A stretch of 64,000 nucleotides of DNA from Chloroflexota bacterium (GTDB lineage: Bacteria > Chloroflexota > Limnocylindria > P2-11E > CF-107): positions 54,215 to 118,214 of the forward strand of contig VBHP01000033.1 of the NCBI GenBank assembly GCA_005881435.1. The letters are read 5' to 3'. Numbering within the stretch: position 1 is the stretch's first letter; each line of letters begins with the position of its first letter. A program made the translations under genes and the position numbers. Below are positions 8,784 through 48,436 of the stretch, piece by piece. The notes below the pieces were generated by a model. It was not told the DNA's origin. It ran no database searches and was given only the letters and a program-made list of their open reading frames with translations.

Positions 8784-9287
8784 CTACTGCGTGATCGAGA
8801 TATGTCCCGCTGTGAGTGCGCTCATTCCGGTGTCGATGCCGAACGCCGGGATCTGCAGCTGGTGCCACGCCCTCCCTGCGCCTCCGGACCCTTGCGACGA
8901 AATGTACGGAACGTTCGAGTGTGTCTCCGTGTGGATGCCGGATGCGGTCCTGCCGACGACGCGCACGGTCGCGGTGCCGCTGAAGCTCGAGCTGGATCCG
9001 GTGATCGTCAGCGTGCCGGCCGTCACCGACCCTTCCACCTGCATCTGCAAGATGGTCATCCCGCCGAATGGGAACCCGCCCGAACGGCCCGCCATAATGC
9101 AGAGGAAACTGCCGCCGGATCGCGTCGCATGCATCCCGAGTTGCGACGTGACGCCGAGTGGCCCGCCGACGACGCCTCCTCCGTTAACGCTCGGGCCCGC
9201 TGAAGCCAGCGCAGAAACTTGCGCCGCGAGAAGGATCGCCACTGTGGAAAATGTGATCAGTAACGTGCGCGCGGAGTTGTTCGCCAT
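8784..9287 (-). CDS. Hypothetical secreted Gly/Ser/Thr-rich protein
   Basis: 167 aa from ATG 9287 (MANNSARTLLITFSTVAILLAAQVSALA signal peptide). GGGGGAGG RBS 5-8 nt upstream. Confidence 0.55.
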   Translation of the reverse strand: MANNSARTLLITFSTVAILLAAQVSALASAGPSVNGGGVVGGPLGVTSQLGMHATRSGGSFLCIMAGRSGGFPFGGMTILQMQVEGSVTAGTLTITGSSSSFSGTATVRVVGRTASGIHTETHSNVPYISSQGSGGAGRAWHQLQIPAFGIDTGMSALTAGHISITQ

Positions 9288-9394
9288 ACCCACCTCCCCC
9301 TAGCGAGTACCTGTCGCGCAGCGGGTATAGCACCGACGTTCAGCGATCGAGGTGTCAATTTTTCGTAACGAGCGCCTTTCCGGCAGGCGGCAGT

Positions 9395-10297
9395 TCATCG
9401 CCGCGCCGCCACACGCATGGCGACGACGACACGAGGGCGGCCCGCGAGATCGGCGACGATGTCGGTCCGCACCCCTGGCGCGGCGCCGAGCTCGGCCGCG
9501 GCGCTCCGAGCCTGAGCGGGCCCGCACTCGAAAAGCGCGATGTCAGTCGGCGCGGGACGCGCGAGCAACTGGGCGATCGCCAGGCGGATGACCGCCAGCC
9601 CGTCGGCGCCGGCGTCCAGCGCCGCACGCGGTTCGAACTCGATGGAGGTGCCGCCTCCCGCATCGACCTCCGCGCTGGTCAGGTACGGAAGATTCGCCAC
9701 GACGGCGTCGAGCGTTTCGTGGATCGGCGCGAGGAGGTCGCCGGCGCGGAAGTCGATGCGCTCCCTGACCTCATGGCGTGATGCGTTCGCACGCGCCACC
9801 TCGAGAGCCGCGGTCGACGAATCCGTGGCGATGAGACGTGCGCGAGGCAGCGCGACCGCCAGCGCGATCGCGATCGCGCCGCTCCCGGTGCCGAGATCGC
9901 AGATCAGCGGCGAGTCGAGCGGGGCGAGACGGCGCACAGTCTCGTCCACCAGCAATTCGGTCTCGGGCCGCGGGATCAGCACGCGGGGATCGACCGCGAA
10001 CTCCAGCCCGTAGAACTCCTTCCAGCCGCGCAGGTACGCGACGGGCTCGCCGCGAGCGCGGCGCGCGATGAGTCCCTCGTATCCAGCGCGCTCGTCCGCG
10101 CTCAGCACGGGTTCGGGGTGCGCGTAGACGTCCTCCTTGCGGATGCCGAGCACGTACGCGAGCAGTAGATCGGCGTCGAGCACCGCGCTCTCGATGCCGG
10201 CCTCGCGGAGTCGCGCGATCGCCTCGCGACGCGCGTTGGCGCGGGTGTCAGGCGGCGAGGAGCCCACGGCGCTTGCCGACGCGCGCGAAAGCGGCAA
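9395..10297 (-). CDS. prmC: Release-factor glutamine N5-methyltransferase (HemK/PrmC family)
   Basis: 300 aa. HemK N-domain ([15 protein letters not shown]), SAM motif [17 protein letters not shown], and catalytic tetrapeptide present as NLPY rather than NPPY. 50-nt overlap with kbl suggests the true start is a little downstream. Confidence 0.75.
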
Positions 10298-11441
10298 TGG
10301 CGCGATCGACCTGTTCGACGGTGTGCGCGGCTGAGAGCTGCACCCGGATCCGCGCCTGACCTTTCGGCACGACCGGATAGCTGAAACCGATGACGTAGAT
10401 CCCTTCGCCGAGGAGGTCGCGCGCCATCTCGTTCGCGATTCGGGCGTCGCCGATCATGATCGGGACGATCGGGTGGTCTCCGGGCCTGATCTGGAATCCG
10501 GCCGTGCGCACACCTTCGCGGAACCGCTTGGCGTTCGCCATCAGCCTCTCGCGCAGCTCGCCGGTCTCGGCGAGCAGATCGAGCACCGCCAACGTGCCGG
10601 CGACGATGACCGGCGACACCGAATTCGAGAACAGATACGGCCGCGCGCGCTGCCGCAGGATCTCGATCAGGTCGCGCGGGCCCGCGGCGAAACCGCCGGA
10701 CGCGCCGCCGAGCGCCTTGCCCAGCGTCGACGTGATCAGATCGACGCGGCCCATCACGCCAGCGAATTCGTGCGTGCCGCGGCCACGCGCACCCATGAAG
10801 CCGGTGGCGTGCGAATCGTCCACCAGGACCATCGCCTCGTGGCGCTCGGCCAGCGCGCAGATCTCCGGCAGCTTGGCCACGTCGCCGTCCATGGAGAAGA
10901 CCCCGTCGGTGACGATGAGACGGAGCCGCTTCGCGCGCGTGGCCTCCAGGCAGCGACCGAGCTCGGCCATGTCCGCGTGCGCGAAGCGCTGACGTTCGGC
11001 CTTGCACAAGCGAACGCCATCGATGATCGAGGCGTGATTTAGCGCGTCGGAGATGACCGCGTCGTGTTCGCCGAGGAGCGCCTCGAACACGCCGCCGTTG
11101 GCGTCGAACGCGCTCGGGAACAGGACGCAGTCCTCCGTACCGACGAACTCCGCCAGGCGGCGTTCCAGTTCCCGATGCCGATCCTGCGTGCCGCAGATGA
11201 AACGCACGCTGGACATGCCGTAGCCGCGTTGTTCCAAGCCGCGACGGGCGGCCTCCAGCACACGCGCGTGGGCGGAGAGGCCGAGGTAATTGTTGGCGCA
11301 GAAGTTGAGCACGCGTTTGCCGTTGACGACGATCTCGGCTCCCTGCGGCGACTCGATCAGCCGCTCGTCCTTCCACGTCCCCGCCTCCCGGATCTCCGCC
11401 AGCGTCTTCGCGTAATGCTCCTGCGCCGTTCTGGTCAACAT
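10248..11441 (-). CDS. kbl: Glycine C-acetyltransferase (2-amino-3-ketobutyrate CoA ligase)
   Basis: 397 aa class-II aminotransferase. Motifs [16 protein letters not shown] and [13 protein letters not shown] (PLP-Lys). Confidence 0.9.
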
Positions 11442-43956: not shown

Positions 43957-44565
43957 ATGTGTGCCATGCCACCGCTCGGCCCGATAGTGCTCGAGGGCAC
44001 GCACGTACGGCTCGAGCCGCTACTTCCTGAGCATGCGCATGGACTCCACGCCGCGACGGAGAGTGACGACATCTGGACGTGGCTGTCGTACGACCTGCGC
44101 GATCCGGAGCGTCTCGAGCGCTGGATGCGCGACGCGTTCGAGGCACGCGACCGCAGTGAAGAGGTGCCGTTCGTGGTGCTGCTGCGCGCGACCGGCGAGG
44201 TCATCGGGAGCACGCGATACATGGACATCCGGCAAAGGTTCAGAGGTGTCGAGATCGGATGGACGTGGTACCGACGCGATACGTGGGGCGGCCCAGTGAA
44301 TCCGGAATGCAAGTACCTGCTGCTCCGTCATGCCTTTGACGACTGGGGCGCGATTCGCGTGTGCCTGAAGACGGACGTCAAGAACGTCCACTCGCAGCAC
44401 GCGATCAAGAAGCTTGGCGCGAAGTACGAGGGCACCCTGCGCAACCACACCATCCGTCGCGACGGCACCTTCCGCGACAGCGTGTATTTCTCGATCATCG
44501 ACACCGAGTGGCCGGCGGTGAAGCGGGGCCTGGAGGACCGCCTCGCCCGGGCAGTGACGCGCTAG
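43957..44565 (+). CDS. GNAT family N-acetyltransferase (RimJ/RimL-like)
   Basis: About 202 aa. Acetyltransf_3-like core (IGSTRYMDI...EIGWTWYRRDTWGG...NVHSQHAIKKLGAKYEG). Confidence 0.7.
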   Translation: MCAMPPLGPIVLEGTHVRLEPLLPEHAHGLHAATESDDIWTWLSYDLRDPERLERWMRDAFEARDRSEEVPFVVLLRATGEVIGSTRYMDIRQRFRGVEIGWTWYRRDTWGGPVNPECKYLLLRHAFDDWGAIRVCLKTDVKNVHSQHAIKKLGAKYEGTLRNHTIRRDGTFRDSVYFSIIDTEWPAVKRGLEDRLARAVTR

Positions 44566-45038
44566 CCCGCGAGACCCAGTTGCCCGATTGCTCCCGGCAC
44601 CTGCCGGGCGATCTCGGCGGCGTCGAAGTACACCCGTTCGCCGACGAACTTGCCCTCACGCACCGGAAAGAAGATCACGACCTTGAAGCGGATGGGCTTG
44701 CCCGAAGGCGGAAAACCAAACAGCGTCCCGGACATCGTCCCGTAGACCTCGGACTGTTCGACGATGCAATCGTCGGCGTCGATGCGATTGAGCAGGTCCA
44801 GCTTCACGTCGGGGATACCTTCCCAGAGGCCGCGGTAGAAGTTCCGCACTTCCTTCTTGCCGGTGAACACCAGCCCGCTCGGCACCACCTCGTAGACGCA
44901 CTCGTCGTGCAGCGTCCCGATCAAACGCTCGAGCTCGCGACGGTTCTCCGCTACGGCGTGCTCGAGCCAGAGCTTGTGATTCGCGCGTGCCGCCTCGCTT
45001 GACGCGGTCGACGTGAACGGACTCGTTTTCGGCATCAT
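44562..45038 (-). CDS. SnoaL-like/NTF2-like (ester-cyclase family) protein
   Basis: 158 aa. Alpha+beta cone fold signature (ECVYEVVPSG...FRFKVVIFFPVREGKFVGERVYFD). Confidence 0.6.
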   Translation of the reverse strand: MMPKTSPFTSTASSEAARANHKLWLEHAVAENRRELERLIGTLHDECVYEVVPSGLVFTGKKEVRNFYRGLWEGIPDVKLDLLNRIDADDCIVEQSEVYGTMSGTLFGFPPSGKPIRFKVVIFFPVREGKFVGERVYFDAAEIARQVPGAIGQLGLAG

Positions 45039-45186: not shown

Positions 45187-47025
45187 TTATTGCTTCGGTG
45201 GAGCCGGAGGCTGGGCAGCGGCCGCCTGGGCTACGGCCGGGATCGCCGTGTGCTGCTCTTCGCCCAGTTGCTCGAACGGTCGCGACAGCACCAGCGGCCT
45301 GCGCTCGAACGTCTTCGCCCCATCCGGGTGCGACAGCTCCGCGTAGCGGAAGACGTCGTCGAGCTCGCTGCCGATGAGCTCCTCGCGCTCGAGCAGCGCG
45401 TTCGCCACGGCGTGCACGACGAAGTCCTTGTCGCGCACGAGCCGCTTCGTCTCCTCGAACAGCTGCCGTAGGAGCTCGTCGGCGGTTTTCAACACCGGCA
45501 TCGGCACACCGCCCATCGGGCTGTTTGGGATCGCGAGCAGCGTCGGGCCCATGCCGAGGTTCGAGATGTACGTCATCGCGAGCGACGTCGCGGTCTGCAG
45601 GTCGCTGTGCGCACCGGCCATCTTCGTGTCCAGGAACAGCTCCTCGACCGCACGCGAGCCGAGCGCGACCATGATCGAACCCTCGATCTCGCGGGCATGC
45701 GTCGCATAACGCTCTTCTTTGTTCTCACGCATGACCACACCGAGCGCGTCACCCATGCGGATGATCGAGGCCTTTTGGATGCGCTGTTCGGTCATGATGT
45801 AGTGCGCGACGACGGCGTGCCCGGCCTCGTGGTACGCGATGGCGCGGCGCTCGTCGGGACGCATCTTGCGGATCGGCTGCTTCAAGCCGAGCTCGCGCGA
45901 ATCACGGGCGTGGAGCCAATCCTTGTAGGTGAGAGCGTCGCGGCCCTGGTCGTGGGCGATGATGAGCGCCTCGTTGATGATCGTTTTGATCATGACCGGG
46001 GTCCAACCGACGGAGTCCTGGACCATCAGGTCCATCGGCATCTCCGGATCGTGCGCCTTCTGCGACAGGTAGTGCTCGATGATGTCGCGGCGACCCTCGC
46101 CGTCAGGCGGATAGACGTTGATGCGGCGGTCGAGCCGTCCCGGGCGCACCAGTGCGGGGTCGAGGACGTCGGGCCGGTTGGTCGCGCCGATGACGAAGAC
46201 CACCGGCTTCGGGGCGATCGTGCCGCGCACCACGCCGAGCCAGCGGAGCATCTTCTGGCTCATCCGGTCCTCGACGTGCTGACCGAGCGAGTCCATCTGG
46301 TTGAGGATCGTGTTCAGCGCGAAGCCGCCCATACCGAACATGCCGCCCATGACGCCGGCCTGCTGCTGTCCGCCGGGCATGCCACCCCGCGACATACCGA
46401 TGGAGTCGAGCTCGTCCATGAACAGGATGCAGGCGCCGCGCCCGGACGGCCCGGAGAACTTGCGACCGAGCTTTCGCGCCTTGCCGAATAGCGACATGAC
46501 GATGAGCGCATCCACGCCCATCCACATCGAGCGCAAGGACGACGCATCGACGTAGATGAAGGGGATCCCCGCTTCGGCGGCGATGACACCCGCAAGGAAG
46601 GTCTTCCCCGTGCCCGGGAGGCCCGACAACAGCATGCCCTTCGGCATCTCGCCGCCGAGCTGCTCGAAGTGCTGCGCGCCCTTGAGGATGTTGACGGTCG
46701 ACTTCGCGTGGTCCAGGAGGTCGGGCTGCCCGCGGTAGCTCTCGAAAGACAGGCCGATCTGCGGATCGTCGGGCGTCACGGTATAGGTGCGCGGCCGCGA
46801 CAGGAACCACATCAGCACGCCGAACTGCGCGATCAGGGCGAACGCCGAGAACAGCAGCCCGATGACCAGCGAGGGCAGCGCCCCGATGATGTCGACGATG
46901 CCGGCGAGGAAGTCGCGCACGCTTCCGGCGAAGAAGATCCACAGCGAGATGACGCCGAACAGGACCACCAGCCGGAACCGGTTGTGCCAGATGACGTACG
47001 CGAACGTCTCGAGGAATCTAGCCAT
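45187..47025 (-). CDS. FtsH-family AAA+ zinc metalloprotease, atypical
   Basis: 612 aa. Two N-terminal TM helices with no periplasmic domain between them. Walker A GLPGTGKT, Walker B ILFMDELD, Gly/Met-rich insertion (GGMPGGQQQAGVMGGMFGMGG), SRH (GATNRPDVLDPALVRPGRLDR) and M41 zinc site HEAGHAVVAH. Confidence 0.8.
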   Translation of the reverse strand: MARFLETFAYVIWHNRFRLVVLFGVISLWIFFAGSVRDFLAGIVDIIGALPSLVIGLLFSAFALIAQFGVLMWFLSRPRTYTVTPDDPQIGLSFESYRGQPDLLDHAKSTVNILKGAQHFEQLGGEMPKGMLLSGLPGTGKTFLAGVIAAEAGIPFIYVDASSLRSMWMGVDALIVMSLFGKARKLGRKFSGPSGRGACILFMDELDSIGMSRGGMPGGQQQAGVMGGMFGMGGFALNTILNQMDSLGQHVEDRMSQKMLRWLGVVRGTIAPKPVVFVIGATNRPDVLDPALVRPGRLDRRINVYPPDGEGRRDIIEHYLSQKAHDPEMPMDLMVQDSVGWTPVMIKTIINEALIIAHDQGRDALTYKDWLHARDSRELGLKQPIRKMRPDERRAIAYHEAGHAVVAHYIMTEQRIQKASIIRMGDALGVVMRENKEERYATHAREIEGSIMVALGSRAVEELFLDTKMAGAHSDLQTATSLAMTYISNLGMGPTLLAIPNSPMGGVPMPVLKTADELLRQLFEETKRLVRDKDFVVHAVANALLEREELIGSELDDVFRYAELSHPDGAKTFERRPLVLSRPFEQLGEEQHTAIPAVAQAAAAQPPAPPKQ

Positions 47026-47411
47026 CAGTTCACGCCTACCACTTCACCATGCTGTACCGAGAGCACGAAGCCACGGATGATCTTATTCCCCTGCTGGTCA
47101 CGACCCCTCACCACATAGGCGGACAGCGTCATGCCGTTGCGATCCGCTGCGCCCAGCCACTTGACGTCGGAGACGGAGATGATCGGATCGAGCGAGGAGT
47201 GCAGCTTGTTCAGCAGATCCTGATTCGAGACCAGGCGGGAGAGCGCCCGCGCGTCGTCCGTCCGAATCGCGGTCGCGACGTCGGCGGAGCTCTGCGGCTC
47301 GGCTGCGGGCGGCAGCGAGGCGTACGGGTTCTGCGCCGGCGCCGCTGAAGTCAGCCACTGCGTCCCGGCACCGATGATGATCCCGGCGGCGAAGAGGAAC
47401 AGCGTCGCCAT
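47025..47411 (-). CDS. Small signal-anchored hypothetical protein (paralogue 1)
   Basis: About 128 aa from ATG 47411 (MATLFLFAAGIIIGAGTQW, N-terminal TM). C-terminal region similar to the next gene. Stop overlaps the ftsH-like start. Confidence 0.5.
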   Translation of the reverse strand: MATLFLFAAGIIIGAGTQWLTSAAPAQNPYASLPPAAEPQSSADVATAIRTDDARALSRLVSNQDLLNKLHSSLDPIISVSDVKWLGAADRNGMTLSAYVVRGRDQQGNKIIRGFVLSVQHGEVVGVN

Positions 47412-47421
47412 GGCCCGCGGG

Positions 47422-47820
47422 CTATTCAACCAGGACGACCTTGCCGTTCATCAGCGTCAGCGCGAACGGCCAGAACACAGTGTCGGCGCCGACGCGCATC
47501 TCGACGGCGTAGACGTCGACCTGAAGCTTCCCCTCGGTGGCTCCGCCAAGGAAGGTTAGCGAGAGCGGATCGACCTGCGCCTGCTGCATGGCGCTCTGGA
47601 CCCGGACCGCGCGCTGCGCGACGTCGCGGCTGGCGGAGACCCCGGAGAGTGCCTCGGGATCCTGTTTCAGCGAAGCAAGCATGTAGGCGCGAGCCTGCGG
47701 TGACTCCGAACCGCTGCCGGAGACCCCGGCGTTCCACAGCGGCGCCGTCACAGCCGCCAGGACATACCCCACCAGCGCGCCGGCGACGACGATCGTCAGG
47801 ACGTCGCGAATCGCCCGCAT
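47422..47820 (-). CDS. Small signal-anchored hypothetical protein (paralogue 2)
   Basis: 132 aa. N-terminal TM (VLTIVVAGALVGYVLAAV) and C-terminal beta-rich region resembling the adjacent gene. Confidence 0.5.
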   Translation of the reverse strand: MRAIRDVLTIVVAGALVGYVLAAVTAPLWNAGVSGSGSESPQARAYMLASLKQDPEALSGVSASRDVAQRAVRVQSAMQQAQVDPLSLTFLGGATEGKLQVDVYAVEMRVGADTVFWPFALTLMNGKVVLVE

Positions 47821-47881: not shown

Positions 47882-48436
47882 GTGAAGCGGCTGGCGGCGC
47901 TCGTCGCGGCCCTCCTGATCACCGCCTGCGGCTACAGCGTCGCCCAGACGGGTTCCCCCTCCGATCCGTACTTCGACGCTCCGACGGCGATCAAGGCCGG
48001 GGCCGGTCTCCTCGATAGCAAAGGCAGCCCGGTGGGATTCGCCAGCTTCAGCGATACCCGTCTCGGCGTGCTCGTCGACCTCAAGGTCGTCGGTCTACCG
48101 AAGGGTGCGCACGGCGTGCACATCCACGCCGTCGGGAAATGCGATCGGCCGGATTTCGCGACCGCCGGCGCGCACTTCAACCCGAGCAACGCGCAGCACG
48201 GGCTGCACAACCTTAAGGGTCCGCACGCCGGAGATCTGCCGAACCTCGTCGTCGGTGACGACGGCAGCGGCAGCCTGCGCTACGTCGATCCGCTGATCTC
48301 GCTCGAGTCCGGAGCGTCGAACTCGATCCTCGGGCTGTCGCTGGTGGTGCACGCGAACGTGGACGACGAAGTGACCGACCCCAGCGGGAACAGCGGGGGC
48401 CGCATTGCCTGCGGTCTGATCGCCAAGCCGACGTAG
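47882..48436 (+). CDS. sodC: Copper/zinc superoxide dismutase lipoprotein
   Basis: 184 aa. Lipobox LITAC. Cu/Zn-SOD signatures HGVHIHAVGKC, GAHFNP, GDLPNL, HANVDD and GNSGGRIACGLI. Confidence 0.9.
   Translation: MKRLAALVAALLITACGYSVAQTGSPSDPYFDAPTAIKAGAGLLDSKGSPVGFASFSDTRLGVLVDLKVVGLPKGAHGVHIHAVGKCDRPDFATAGAHFNPSNAQHGLHNLKGPHAGDLPNLVVGDDGSGSLRYVDPLISLESGASNSILGLSLVVHANVDDEVTDPSGNSGGRIACGLIAKPT

Follow-up and report, generated by a model that had tools for sequence, protein, structure and literature searches.

The 64,000-nucleotide stretch of Chloroflexota DNA analysed here (contig VBHP01000033.1; hereafter the window) carries on its minus strand a trio of genes, sA, sB and a gene for an AAA+/M41 protease related to FtsH. 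The model we propose, which we hold to be somewhat better than an even proposition, is that of a protease complex in which co-translated bitopic subunits of NTF2-like fold provide the extracytoplasmic part in trans, two paralogous partners being present here through duplication. The protease would be a membrane-embedded member of an old FtsH-related clade, without an ectodomain of its own. The partners encoded upstream of it would be N-in bitopic proteins carrying an extracytoplasmic NTF2-like domain, that is, an ectodomain in trans; they would assemble with the protease through their transmembrane helices and act as accessory subunits, with scaffolding, gating or substrate selection at the outer membrane face as their likely roles. 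This logic would be comparable to that of the FtsH periplasmic domain and of HflK/HflC for E. coli FtsH. Duplication of the partner gene in the Limnocylindria-like class would have led to two paralogous partners made together with the protease.

The three open reading frames were confirmed head to tail on the minus strand, on which all features of the trio given below also lie: sA (47422..47820, 132 aa) comes first, sB (47025..47429, 134 aa, TTG start) stands in the middle and the protease gene (45187..47025, 612 aa) is the last. The TGA of sB and the ATG of the protease gene share one base at 47025 (TGATG); the overlap of a small-gene stop with the protease start that was described in the initial annotation, made from the letters of the sequence, therefore holds for sB only, the stop of sA lying instead 8 nt inside sB. 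The TTG start of sB at 47429 is backed by orthologues starting with (M/V)NEARA; some gene callers choose the ATG at 47411, which gives a protein of 128 aa. The G+C content of the window is 64-73%. The promoter scan of the locus yielded no promoter-like site, and the terminator scan gave two terminator-like sites, both within genes, for 1.2 expected by chance. This layout most likely represents a single operon with translational coupling, from which sA, sB and the protease are made. The 612-aa protease is GenBank TMD60487.1, annotated 'MAG: AAA family ATPase [Chloroflexi bacterium]' (MAG, metagenome-assembled genome); identical copies were found on soil-metagenome contigs, and the named homologues nearest to it belong to MAGs of Candidatus Limnocylindria and other Chloroflexota.

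The catalytic core of the protease is complete in its motifs. Pfam AAA (E 1e-27) and Peptidase_M41 (E 8e-28, covering only profile positions 3-111 of 191) both match it, and PF00004 and PF01434 are the only Pfam domains in its homologues. Walker A (GLPGTGKT, aa 135-142) and Walker B (ILFMDELD, aa 200-207) are accompanied by the pore-1 motif MWMG, the sensor-1 motif ATN and the arginine fingers RPGRLDR, and the core residues of these motifs are invariant among homologues (pore-1 as MWxG, sensor-1 as TN). The zinc site HEAGH (aa 399-403, 45817..45831) and the segment GAHSDLQTAT (45586-45615), which holds the presumed third zinc ligand D475, align with the canonical motifs, with H399, E400, A401, G402, H403, S474 and D475 invariant. 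Since all catalytic motifs are kept, the 612-aa protein is read as an active ATP-dependent zinc protease, an activity that remains putative at the level of motifs; an inactive pseudo-protease of the FtsHi type was ruled out as a candidate, every catalytic motif being invariant. The full AAA+ module, the M41 zinc site and the Ala/Pro-rich C-terminal tail that the initial annotation had attributed to this protein are all real. The tail is not conserved among homologues and was dropped as a functional feature.

The resemblance to canonical FtsH (TIGR01241; FtsH_ext + AAA + Peptidase_M41) thus includes the two N-terminal transmembrane helices, the cytoplasmic AAA+ module, Walker A and B, the aromatic pore-1 loop, the arginine fingers, HEXXH with its downstream Asp, and the best PDB matches, of which the first is Aquifex FtsH (6gcn, 226 bits), in an alignment that breaks between query residues 219 and 275. 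The differences are of several kinds. The score of the protease with TIGR01241, the NCBIfam FtsH equivalog, is 285.9 bits, below the 600-bit cut-off, the positive control being the canonical P0262 of Myxococcales with 723 bits, and only about 110 of the 191 M41 profile positions are matched. Alignment with the canonical FtsH of Myxococcales and Deinococcus, our reference for all the differences that follow, indicates that the ectodomain of ~70-90 residues between the transmembrane helices is absent. Hydropathy delimits an N-terminal membrane hairpin (46801..46971) made of a first helix at aa 19-36, a loop of 13 residues at aa 37-49 and a second helix at aa 50-75, and no Pfam match to FtsH_ext was found in the protease; the gap in the alignment, the short loop and the missing FtsH_ext match all agree with the earlier claim that the periplasmic domain is lacking. 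The topology would be N-in/C-in, which fits the flanking R16, R18, R77 and R79. Adjoining the hairpin is a family-specific juxtamembrane linker, SRPRTYTVTPDDPQIGLSF (46744..46800). It reads SRPRTYTVTPD in the protease, distinguishes the clade from canonical FtsH, and holds positions that are invariant in 12 homologues (P78, R79, Y81, T82-D86, P88-I90 and L92-F94).

Further departures concern the AAA+ module itself. The Gly/Met-rich run GGMPGGQQQAGVMGGMFGMGG (aa 214-234, 46324..46386), already picked out in the initial annotation as an insertion after Walker B, aligns where canonical FtsH has GGGHDEREQ; it is uncharged and conserved across the clade. In AAA+ proteins the loop after the Walker B strand is pore loop 2, and by this established topology the run is an expanded pore-2 loop. 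A second insertion, which the initial annotation did not include, follows the Gly/Met run: in the alignment (46204..46296), MDSL takes the place of MDGF, the canonical motif for inter-subunit signalling, and 27 inserted residues (aa 248-274) separate it from the sensor-1 strand. D245, S246 and L247 are invariant in close homologues, more distant members of the clade have MDPP, and the insertion amounts to 25-30 residues across the clade. The canonical FSGADL is likewise replaced, by WTPVMIK (pattern WTPVxIK). The combination of the Gly/Met pore-2 loop and of the rebuilt MDGF region suggests a changed substrate grip and a changed coupling between subunits, and, more speculatively, flexible Met-rich loops may favour hydrophobic membrane segments.

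These features belong to a clade and not to a single protein. The protease was searched against 1.84 billion cluster representatives, and among the best 150 matches most aligned, as does the query, from near their own N-terminus, those that were read having the short N-terminal design. Ten of these 150 matches were scored with TIGR01241: nine reached only 200-320 bits, and the tenth is the canonical P0262, which ranks near the bottom. The named members of the clade are from Limnocylindrales, Chloroflexaceae, Oscillochloridaceae and Thermomicrobium roseum DSM 5159. In a neighbour-joining tree of 28 sequences (515 columns, 200 bootstraps), a split with 100% bootstrap separates six canonical FtsH, one for each of Myxococcota, Cyanobacteriota, Alphaproteobacteria, Deinococcota, Actinomycetota and Bacillota, from all 22 short-loop sequences, and the window protease is 30-33% identical to the canonical FtsH of these six phylum-level groups. 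Such a topology is what either an old paralogous clade or one evolving very fast would produce; the complete split from the canonical FtsH of six phyla is not the pattern expected from the lineage-specific drift of a housekeeping gene. The distinctness from canonical FtsH that had been proposed at the outset is therefore sustained by the score (286 vs 600 bits), the identity and the tree. A more distant short-loop FtsH-like subfamily without the Gly/Met run was also met (L071, that is P0309 on a 4.69-Mb contig, together with P0219 and P0234). The gene of the L071 type lies between lexA and nrdR, preceded by an 83-aa open reading frame of no known family, and this subfamily may be an SOS-linked relative in another phylum.

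The products of sA and sB share one architecture, each with a short basic N-terminus, a single hydrophobic helix and a C-terminal domain (aa ~41-131 in sA). The anchor of sA spans aa 7-29 (47734..47802; Kyte-Doolittle peak 2.36; modelled helix aa 2-25) and that of sB, placed by hydropathy, aa 7-26 (47352..47411; modelled helix aa 4-24). The two proteins are collinear over their full length in BLASTP (23% identity, E 2e-4), and hhalign comparison of the family profiles, built from 46 orthologues of sA and 48 of sB, aligns 118 columns with a probability of 88.7% and an E of 2.6e-6. On this comparison sA and sB are paralogues, real but distant, and the initial view of a pair of ~130-aa proteins derived by duplication is borne out. 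The C-terminus ...VVGVN is near-invariant in the sB family.

AlphaFold2 models of both proteins, computed from an alignment of 95 sequences, reached a mean predicted local distance difference test score (pLDDT) of 78.7 for sA (domain 75-91) and of 79.2 for sB (domain 86-93). They display the transmembrane helix, a low-confidence linker, then three helices and four long antiparallel strands. The top 50 Foldseek matches against the PDB for sA and for sB are almost all NTF2-like or related cone folds, including limonene epoxide hydrolase, SnoaL2, ketosteroid-isomerase-like and cystatin-like proteins and de novo NTF2 designs, with E values in the range 2e-4 to 1e-2; the best are 1.9e-4 for sB, limonene epoxide hydrolase and SnoaL2 being among its matches, and 7.3e-4 for sA. 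The C-terminal domain is thus predicted to adopt an NTF2-like alpha+beta fold, and of the description first given, an N-terminal transmembrane anchor and a beta-rich C-terminus, the anchor stands and 'beta-rich' has to be replaced by alpha+beta. By the positive-inside rule both proteins would be N-in bitopic, with the NTF2-like domain on the extracytoplasmic side. Neither sA nor sB matches a Pfam family, and NCBIfam gives only sub-threshold noise; by these profiles they form an undescribed NTF2-like family, outside the SnoaL, DUF4440, VirB8, MecA_N and Tim44 families. In the partner family the residues that hardly vary are A, G, G, Y, G and K, and no acidic or His residue is conserved, which argues against an enzyme; a SnoaL-type or limonene-epoxide-hydrolase-type enzyme was ruled out on these grounds. 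A detached FtsH periplasmic domain or an SPFH domain was also rejected as a candidate, no FtsH or SPFH chain occurring among the top 50 Foldseek matches. In the 95-sequence alignment of the partner family (A3), the sole recurring Pfam match is a weak one to PBP (phosphatidylethanolamine-binding protein), in 12 of the ~210-aa Chloroflexales partner homologues (best E 1.2e-5), which does not fit an NTF2-like fold and for which we have no explanation.

The association of the three genes is conserved. A genome scan with one genome per GTDB species, in which the juxtamembrane linker served as the family pattern, returned 51 loci, nearly all labelled Limnocylindria or Chloroflexota, with about one locus per genome. 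Of the loci with sufficient upstream DNA, 47/47 carry sA, sB and the protease gene in this order on one strand, and overlapping or near-abutting gene junctions are common among the related loci. Orthologues devoid of the small partner genes, which the initial annotation had named as a sign of a merely divergent housekeeping FtsH, are therefore not what the neighbourhood displays. Across loci, identity to the window proteins is 62-68% for the protease, 35-47% for sB and 33-50% for sA; it reaches 75-81% in a closer relative, L041. L041 (DASQXO010000180.1) and L057 (DASPWX010000147.1) carry typical trios of 64-81% identity under the labels Candidatus Dormiibacterota and Candidatus Bathyarchaeia, which are probably binning errors in the source MAGs. 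In one further locus (L033:2088-2942) sA and sB form an in-frame fusion from which ~17 residues at the end of sA, with its two terminal strands, are missing; an error of assembly or a natural but degenerate fusion would explain it, and it was not used as evidence.

The surroundings of the trio in these loci also deserve mention. In 34 Limnocylindria loci (within L007-L057), secD-secF immediately precedes sA in the same orientation (for example L043:2799-5068, and L010:3043-5105 and 9199-10920); a 379-aa gene without clear family stands between secF and sA in 23 of these 34, one orthologue having a weak dienelactone-hydrolase match, and recJ is downstream of the trio in 29 loci. This secDF/recJ context has been lost from the window's own lineage. 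It could reflect a link to Sec export quality control or plain synteny. An alpha/beta-hydrolase neighbour shared between Limnocylindria (379 aa) and T. roseum (377 aa) was considered and rejected, the two proteins not being homologous.

Beyond Limnocylindria, proteases 35-45% identical to that of the window, in other Chloroflexota, have upstream of them a homologous bitopic partner with the same C-terminal domain. This partner has 213 aa in a Chloroflexaceae locus (L058) and 173 aa in L059; two loci (L062 and L064) combine a 206-208-aa single-domain gene with a 314-360-aa two-domain gene, and homologous partners precede the protease in L065 and L067. In T. roseum, the 206-aa partner TRD_RS13165 lies 13 bp upstream of the protease TRD_RS13160. 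The sA profile matches three distant partners with an hhalign probability of 82% and an E of 1e-5, and the sB profile matches distant partners with 39.5% and 3e-4. With 24.5 bits, the partner with two domains in L062 exceeds the cut-off of 22 for Pfam MecA_N ('NTF2-like N-terminal transpeptidase domain'). When 5.8 billion proteins were searched with the partner-family profile, 104 members were found, all 'hypothetical', the named ones all from Chloroflexota, and look-ups starting from partner homologues led in 3/3 cases to a same-strand AAA+M41 gene downstream of the partner. A single NTF2-like partner for each protease, seen in Chloroflexaceae and Thermomicrobium, is the older and more widespread condition, and the duplication is specific to the Limnocylindria-like class.

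The N-termini of the two proteins provide a further indication. In the seven pairs from outside Limnocylindria that were compared (L058, L059, L062, L064, L065, L067 and L069), the protease carries in 7/7 an acidic N-terminal motif of the type (D/E)ELDxKxD, predicted to be cytoplasmic (for example DDLDRELDKKLDK, NELDHKIDDTL and RDELEQQIDD), and the partner carries in the same 7/7 a basic amphipathic N-terminal helix (for example VIGRVFGRLILRLVRLVMRRRR and RRRRSRVLFWPLIALAQVVRVVLRK). The trio of the window has neither the acidic motif nor the basic helix, its partner tails being of ~6 residues. This joint presence and loss of complementary N-termini is a hint that fits a physical contact between the two proteins and is not a proof of it.

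Several observations weigh against the model. The Foldseek TM-scores of the partners are moderate (~0.5, for a query length that counts the transmembrane helix and the linker), as are the hhalign probabilities within the partner family (82-89%), and the near-invariant positions, mostly Gly with Ala, Tyr and Lys, give no clue to a function. Moreover, in two distant members of the clade (L060 and L061) the upstream bitopic proteins have non-homologous ectodomains, so that the NTF2-like partner is not universal in the wider clade. This suggests a more general rule, that a bitopic protein stands ahead of an ectodomain-less protease; in Chloroflexota the NTF2-like partner would play this part.

The arrangement has partial counterparts in known systems. 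HflK and HflC, which accompany E. coli FtsH, are two paralogous, tandemly encoded, N-in bitopic proteins with extracytoplasmic domains, and sA and sB resemble them as tandem paralogues, predicted N-in bitopic, encoded beside an FtsH-type protease. They differ from HflK/HflC (~330-420 aa, SPFH/Band-7) by their size of ~130 aa and their NTF2-like fold, no Pfam match to Band_7 being found in sA/sB and no SPFH structure in their top 50 Foldseek matches. Furthermore, hflKC is unlinked to ftsH, whereas the genes of sA and sB form an overlapping set with the protease gene, and the periplasmic domain contacted by HflK/C in E. coli is missing from this protease. VirB8, the N-domain of class B penicillin-binding proteins (MecA_N) and the C-domain of Tim44 resemble sA and sB in that a transmembrane anchor leads into an extracytoplasmic NTF2-like cone, but sA and sB match none of these families, MecA_N being passed by one distant partner. 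We know of no pairing of VirB8, MecA_N or Tim44 families with an AAA protease, and our literature search found none for bitopic NTF2-like families. The mitochondrial i-AAA protease Yme1 with Mgr1/Mgr3 is another FtsH-family enzyme with a non-bacterial N-terminal design and separate membrane-anchored adaptors, and Yme1 (6az0) is among the PDB sequence matches of the protease; it differs by its single transmembrane helix, its catalytic domains facing the intermembrane space, its adaptors unrelated in fold and its canonical pore-2 loop and inter-subunit signalling motif, both kept.

A stronger form of our model, which we advance only tentatively, would make the assembly an obligate 'split FtsH': the NTF2-like subunits would form a ring or a gate over the hexamer, the pore-2 loops and the rewired signalling would be specialised for pulling hydrophobic segments from the membrane, and in Limnocylindria, where the module directly follows secDF, the complex would serve the quality control of the Sec machinery. 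A different reading, rather unlikely in our estimation, would make sA and sB dedicated targets of the protease and not stable subunits, either as substrates or as inhibitors that mimic substrates, much as YccA or anti-sigma factors behave towards FtsH or site-2 proteases; the NTF2-like domain would sense a signal outside the cytoplasm, and proteolysis of the small proteins would relay it. The conserved linkage suits a substrate pair as well as it suits a complex, NTF2-like cones often bind small ligands, and in other classes the partner has a basic cytoplasmic N-terminal tail of 25-70 residues that the AAA ring could grasp, which strengthens this reading. It is weakened by the tails of only ~6 residues in the window trio and in all Limnocylindria orthologues, where E. 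coli FtsH reportedly needs ~20 residues to start degradation (Chiba et al. 2000). Genes so tightly coupled in translation, and a partner that was duplicated independently more than once, are also more typical of stoichiometric subunits, and no DNA-binding or sigma-related gene is conserved beside the module. Less probable still is that the small proteins act on their own, for instance in envelope biogenesis or Sec-dependent export, and are merely co-transcribed with the protease: we give this very little credence. SecDF lies upstream in 34 loci, ddl and murG adjoin two distant loci, and one partner is similar to the NTF2-like domain at the N-terminus of class B penicillin-binding proteins, but the SecDF, ddl and murG neighbours vary between classes, the adjacency of partner and protease is constant, and every partner homologue whose context was inspected is upstream of a protease of this clade.

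We think it improbable that this protease is simply a fast-evolving housekeeping FtsH, the only one of its lineage, with upstream genes that provide accessory factors for general FtsH function. This reading draws on the fact that a tblastn search of the 64-kb window with the protease found only itself and no canonical ftsH, that none was found in ~0.6 Mb of related loci, which hold one protease copy per locus, that the genome scan gave about one clade locus per genome, and that the trio occupies a housekeeping neighbourhood, secD-secF ... recJ, in 34 related loci. Against it, the same clade occurs in several Chloroflexota classes and is excluded by the canonical FtsH of six phyla with 100% bootstrap, as an old paralogue would be; the NCBI pipeline names the clade proteins 'AAA family ATPase' and not FtsH; and the T. 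roseum pair is on a second replicon of 918 kb (NC_011961.1). T. roseum and other cultured Chloroflexota presumably have canonical FtsH entries in UniProt. On the T. roseum second replicon, tblastn gave two matching places, the second of which, an AAA-like match, was not located; with canonical FtsH of Myxococcales and Deinococcus as queries this replicon was not in the top 60 matches, and the 100 kb at 320-420 kb contain hpt and no ftsH. The presence of trpS, hpt, thiI, a sigma factor and cytochrome oxidase genes on this 'plasmid' implies that it behaves as a second chromosome. Its hpt (L076:48419-49420; NC_011961.1 368419-369420) is annotated with 334 aa, about twice the usual length. A review calls FtsH universal in prokaryotes (PMC9020784), which also speaks against the clade member being the only FtsH of its hosts.

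Our observations point to a phylum-wide, uncharacterised module, presumably a partner-dependent branch of a universal quality-control protease, in which a new family of partners acting in trans would accompany an FtsH-family protease. As a membrane-anchored AAA+ protease FtsH is universal, and the control of membrane-substrate access by its ectodomain and by HflK/C is under active study; our literature search found nothing on an ectodomain-less FtsH, a Gly/Met-rich FtsH or NTF2-like FtsH partners. The design of this clade dispenses with the ectodomain, a separate co-translated protein carrying an unrelated NTF2-like domain instead, and two elements thought to be central to FtsH mechanics, the pore-2 loop and the DGF inter-subunit signalling motif, are rebuilt. 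If the partners are true subunits, the clade would offer a compact natural experiment on the essential features of FtsH, on outsourced substrate gating and on Met-rich pore loops; if the obligate split form is correct, it would represent a previously unrecognised class of FtsH-family holoenzyme. A protein family annotated only as 'hypothetical' gains in addition a function-linked context, and a cultured and sequenced host, T. roseum DSM 5159 (B9L525/B9L526), is available for direct tests.

Finally, the neighbours of the trio in the window (the SodC lipoprotein, SnoaL-like, EamA, DUF2382 and GNAT genes) are kept only in the closest relative, L041. The SnoaL-like gene (44562-45038, minus strand; Pfam SnoaL E 7e-20) lies directly downstream of the protease gene after a gap of 148 bp, and its product is a soluble protein of the NTF2 superfamily; that it shares the fold class of sA and sB is probably a coincidence. 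On the other side, 61 bp from sA and divergent from it, a gene on the plus strand (47882-48436) encodes a Cu/Zn superoxide dismutase (SodC) with a lipoprotein-type signal (LITAC), and a heavy-metal-associated-domain gene was found near the T. roseum protease locus. Met-rich motifs are able to bind Cu(I), and a metal link between the SodC neighbour and the Gly/Met-rich loop is conceivable, though unsupported.

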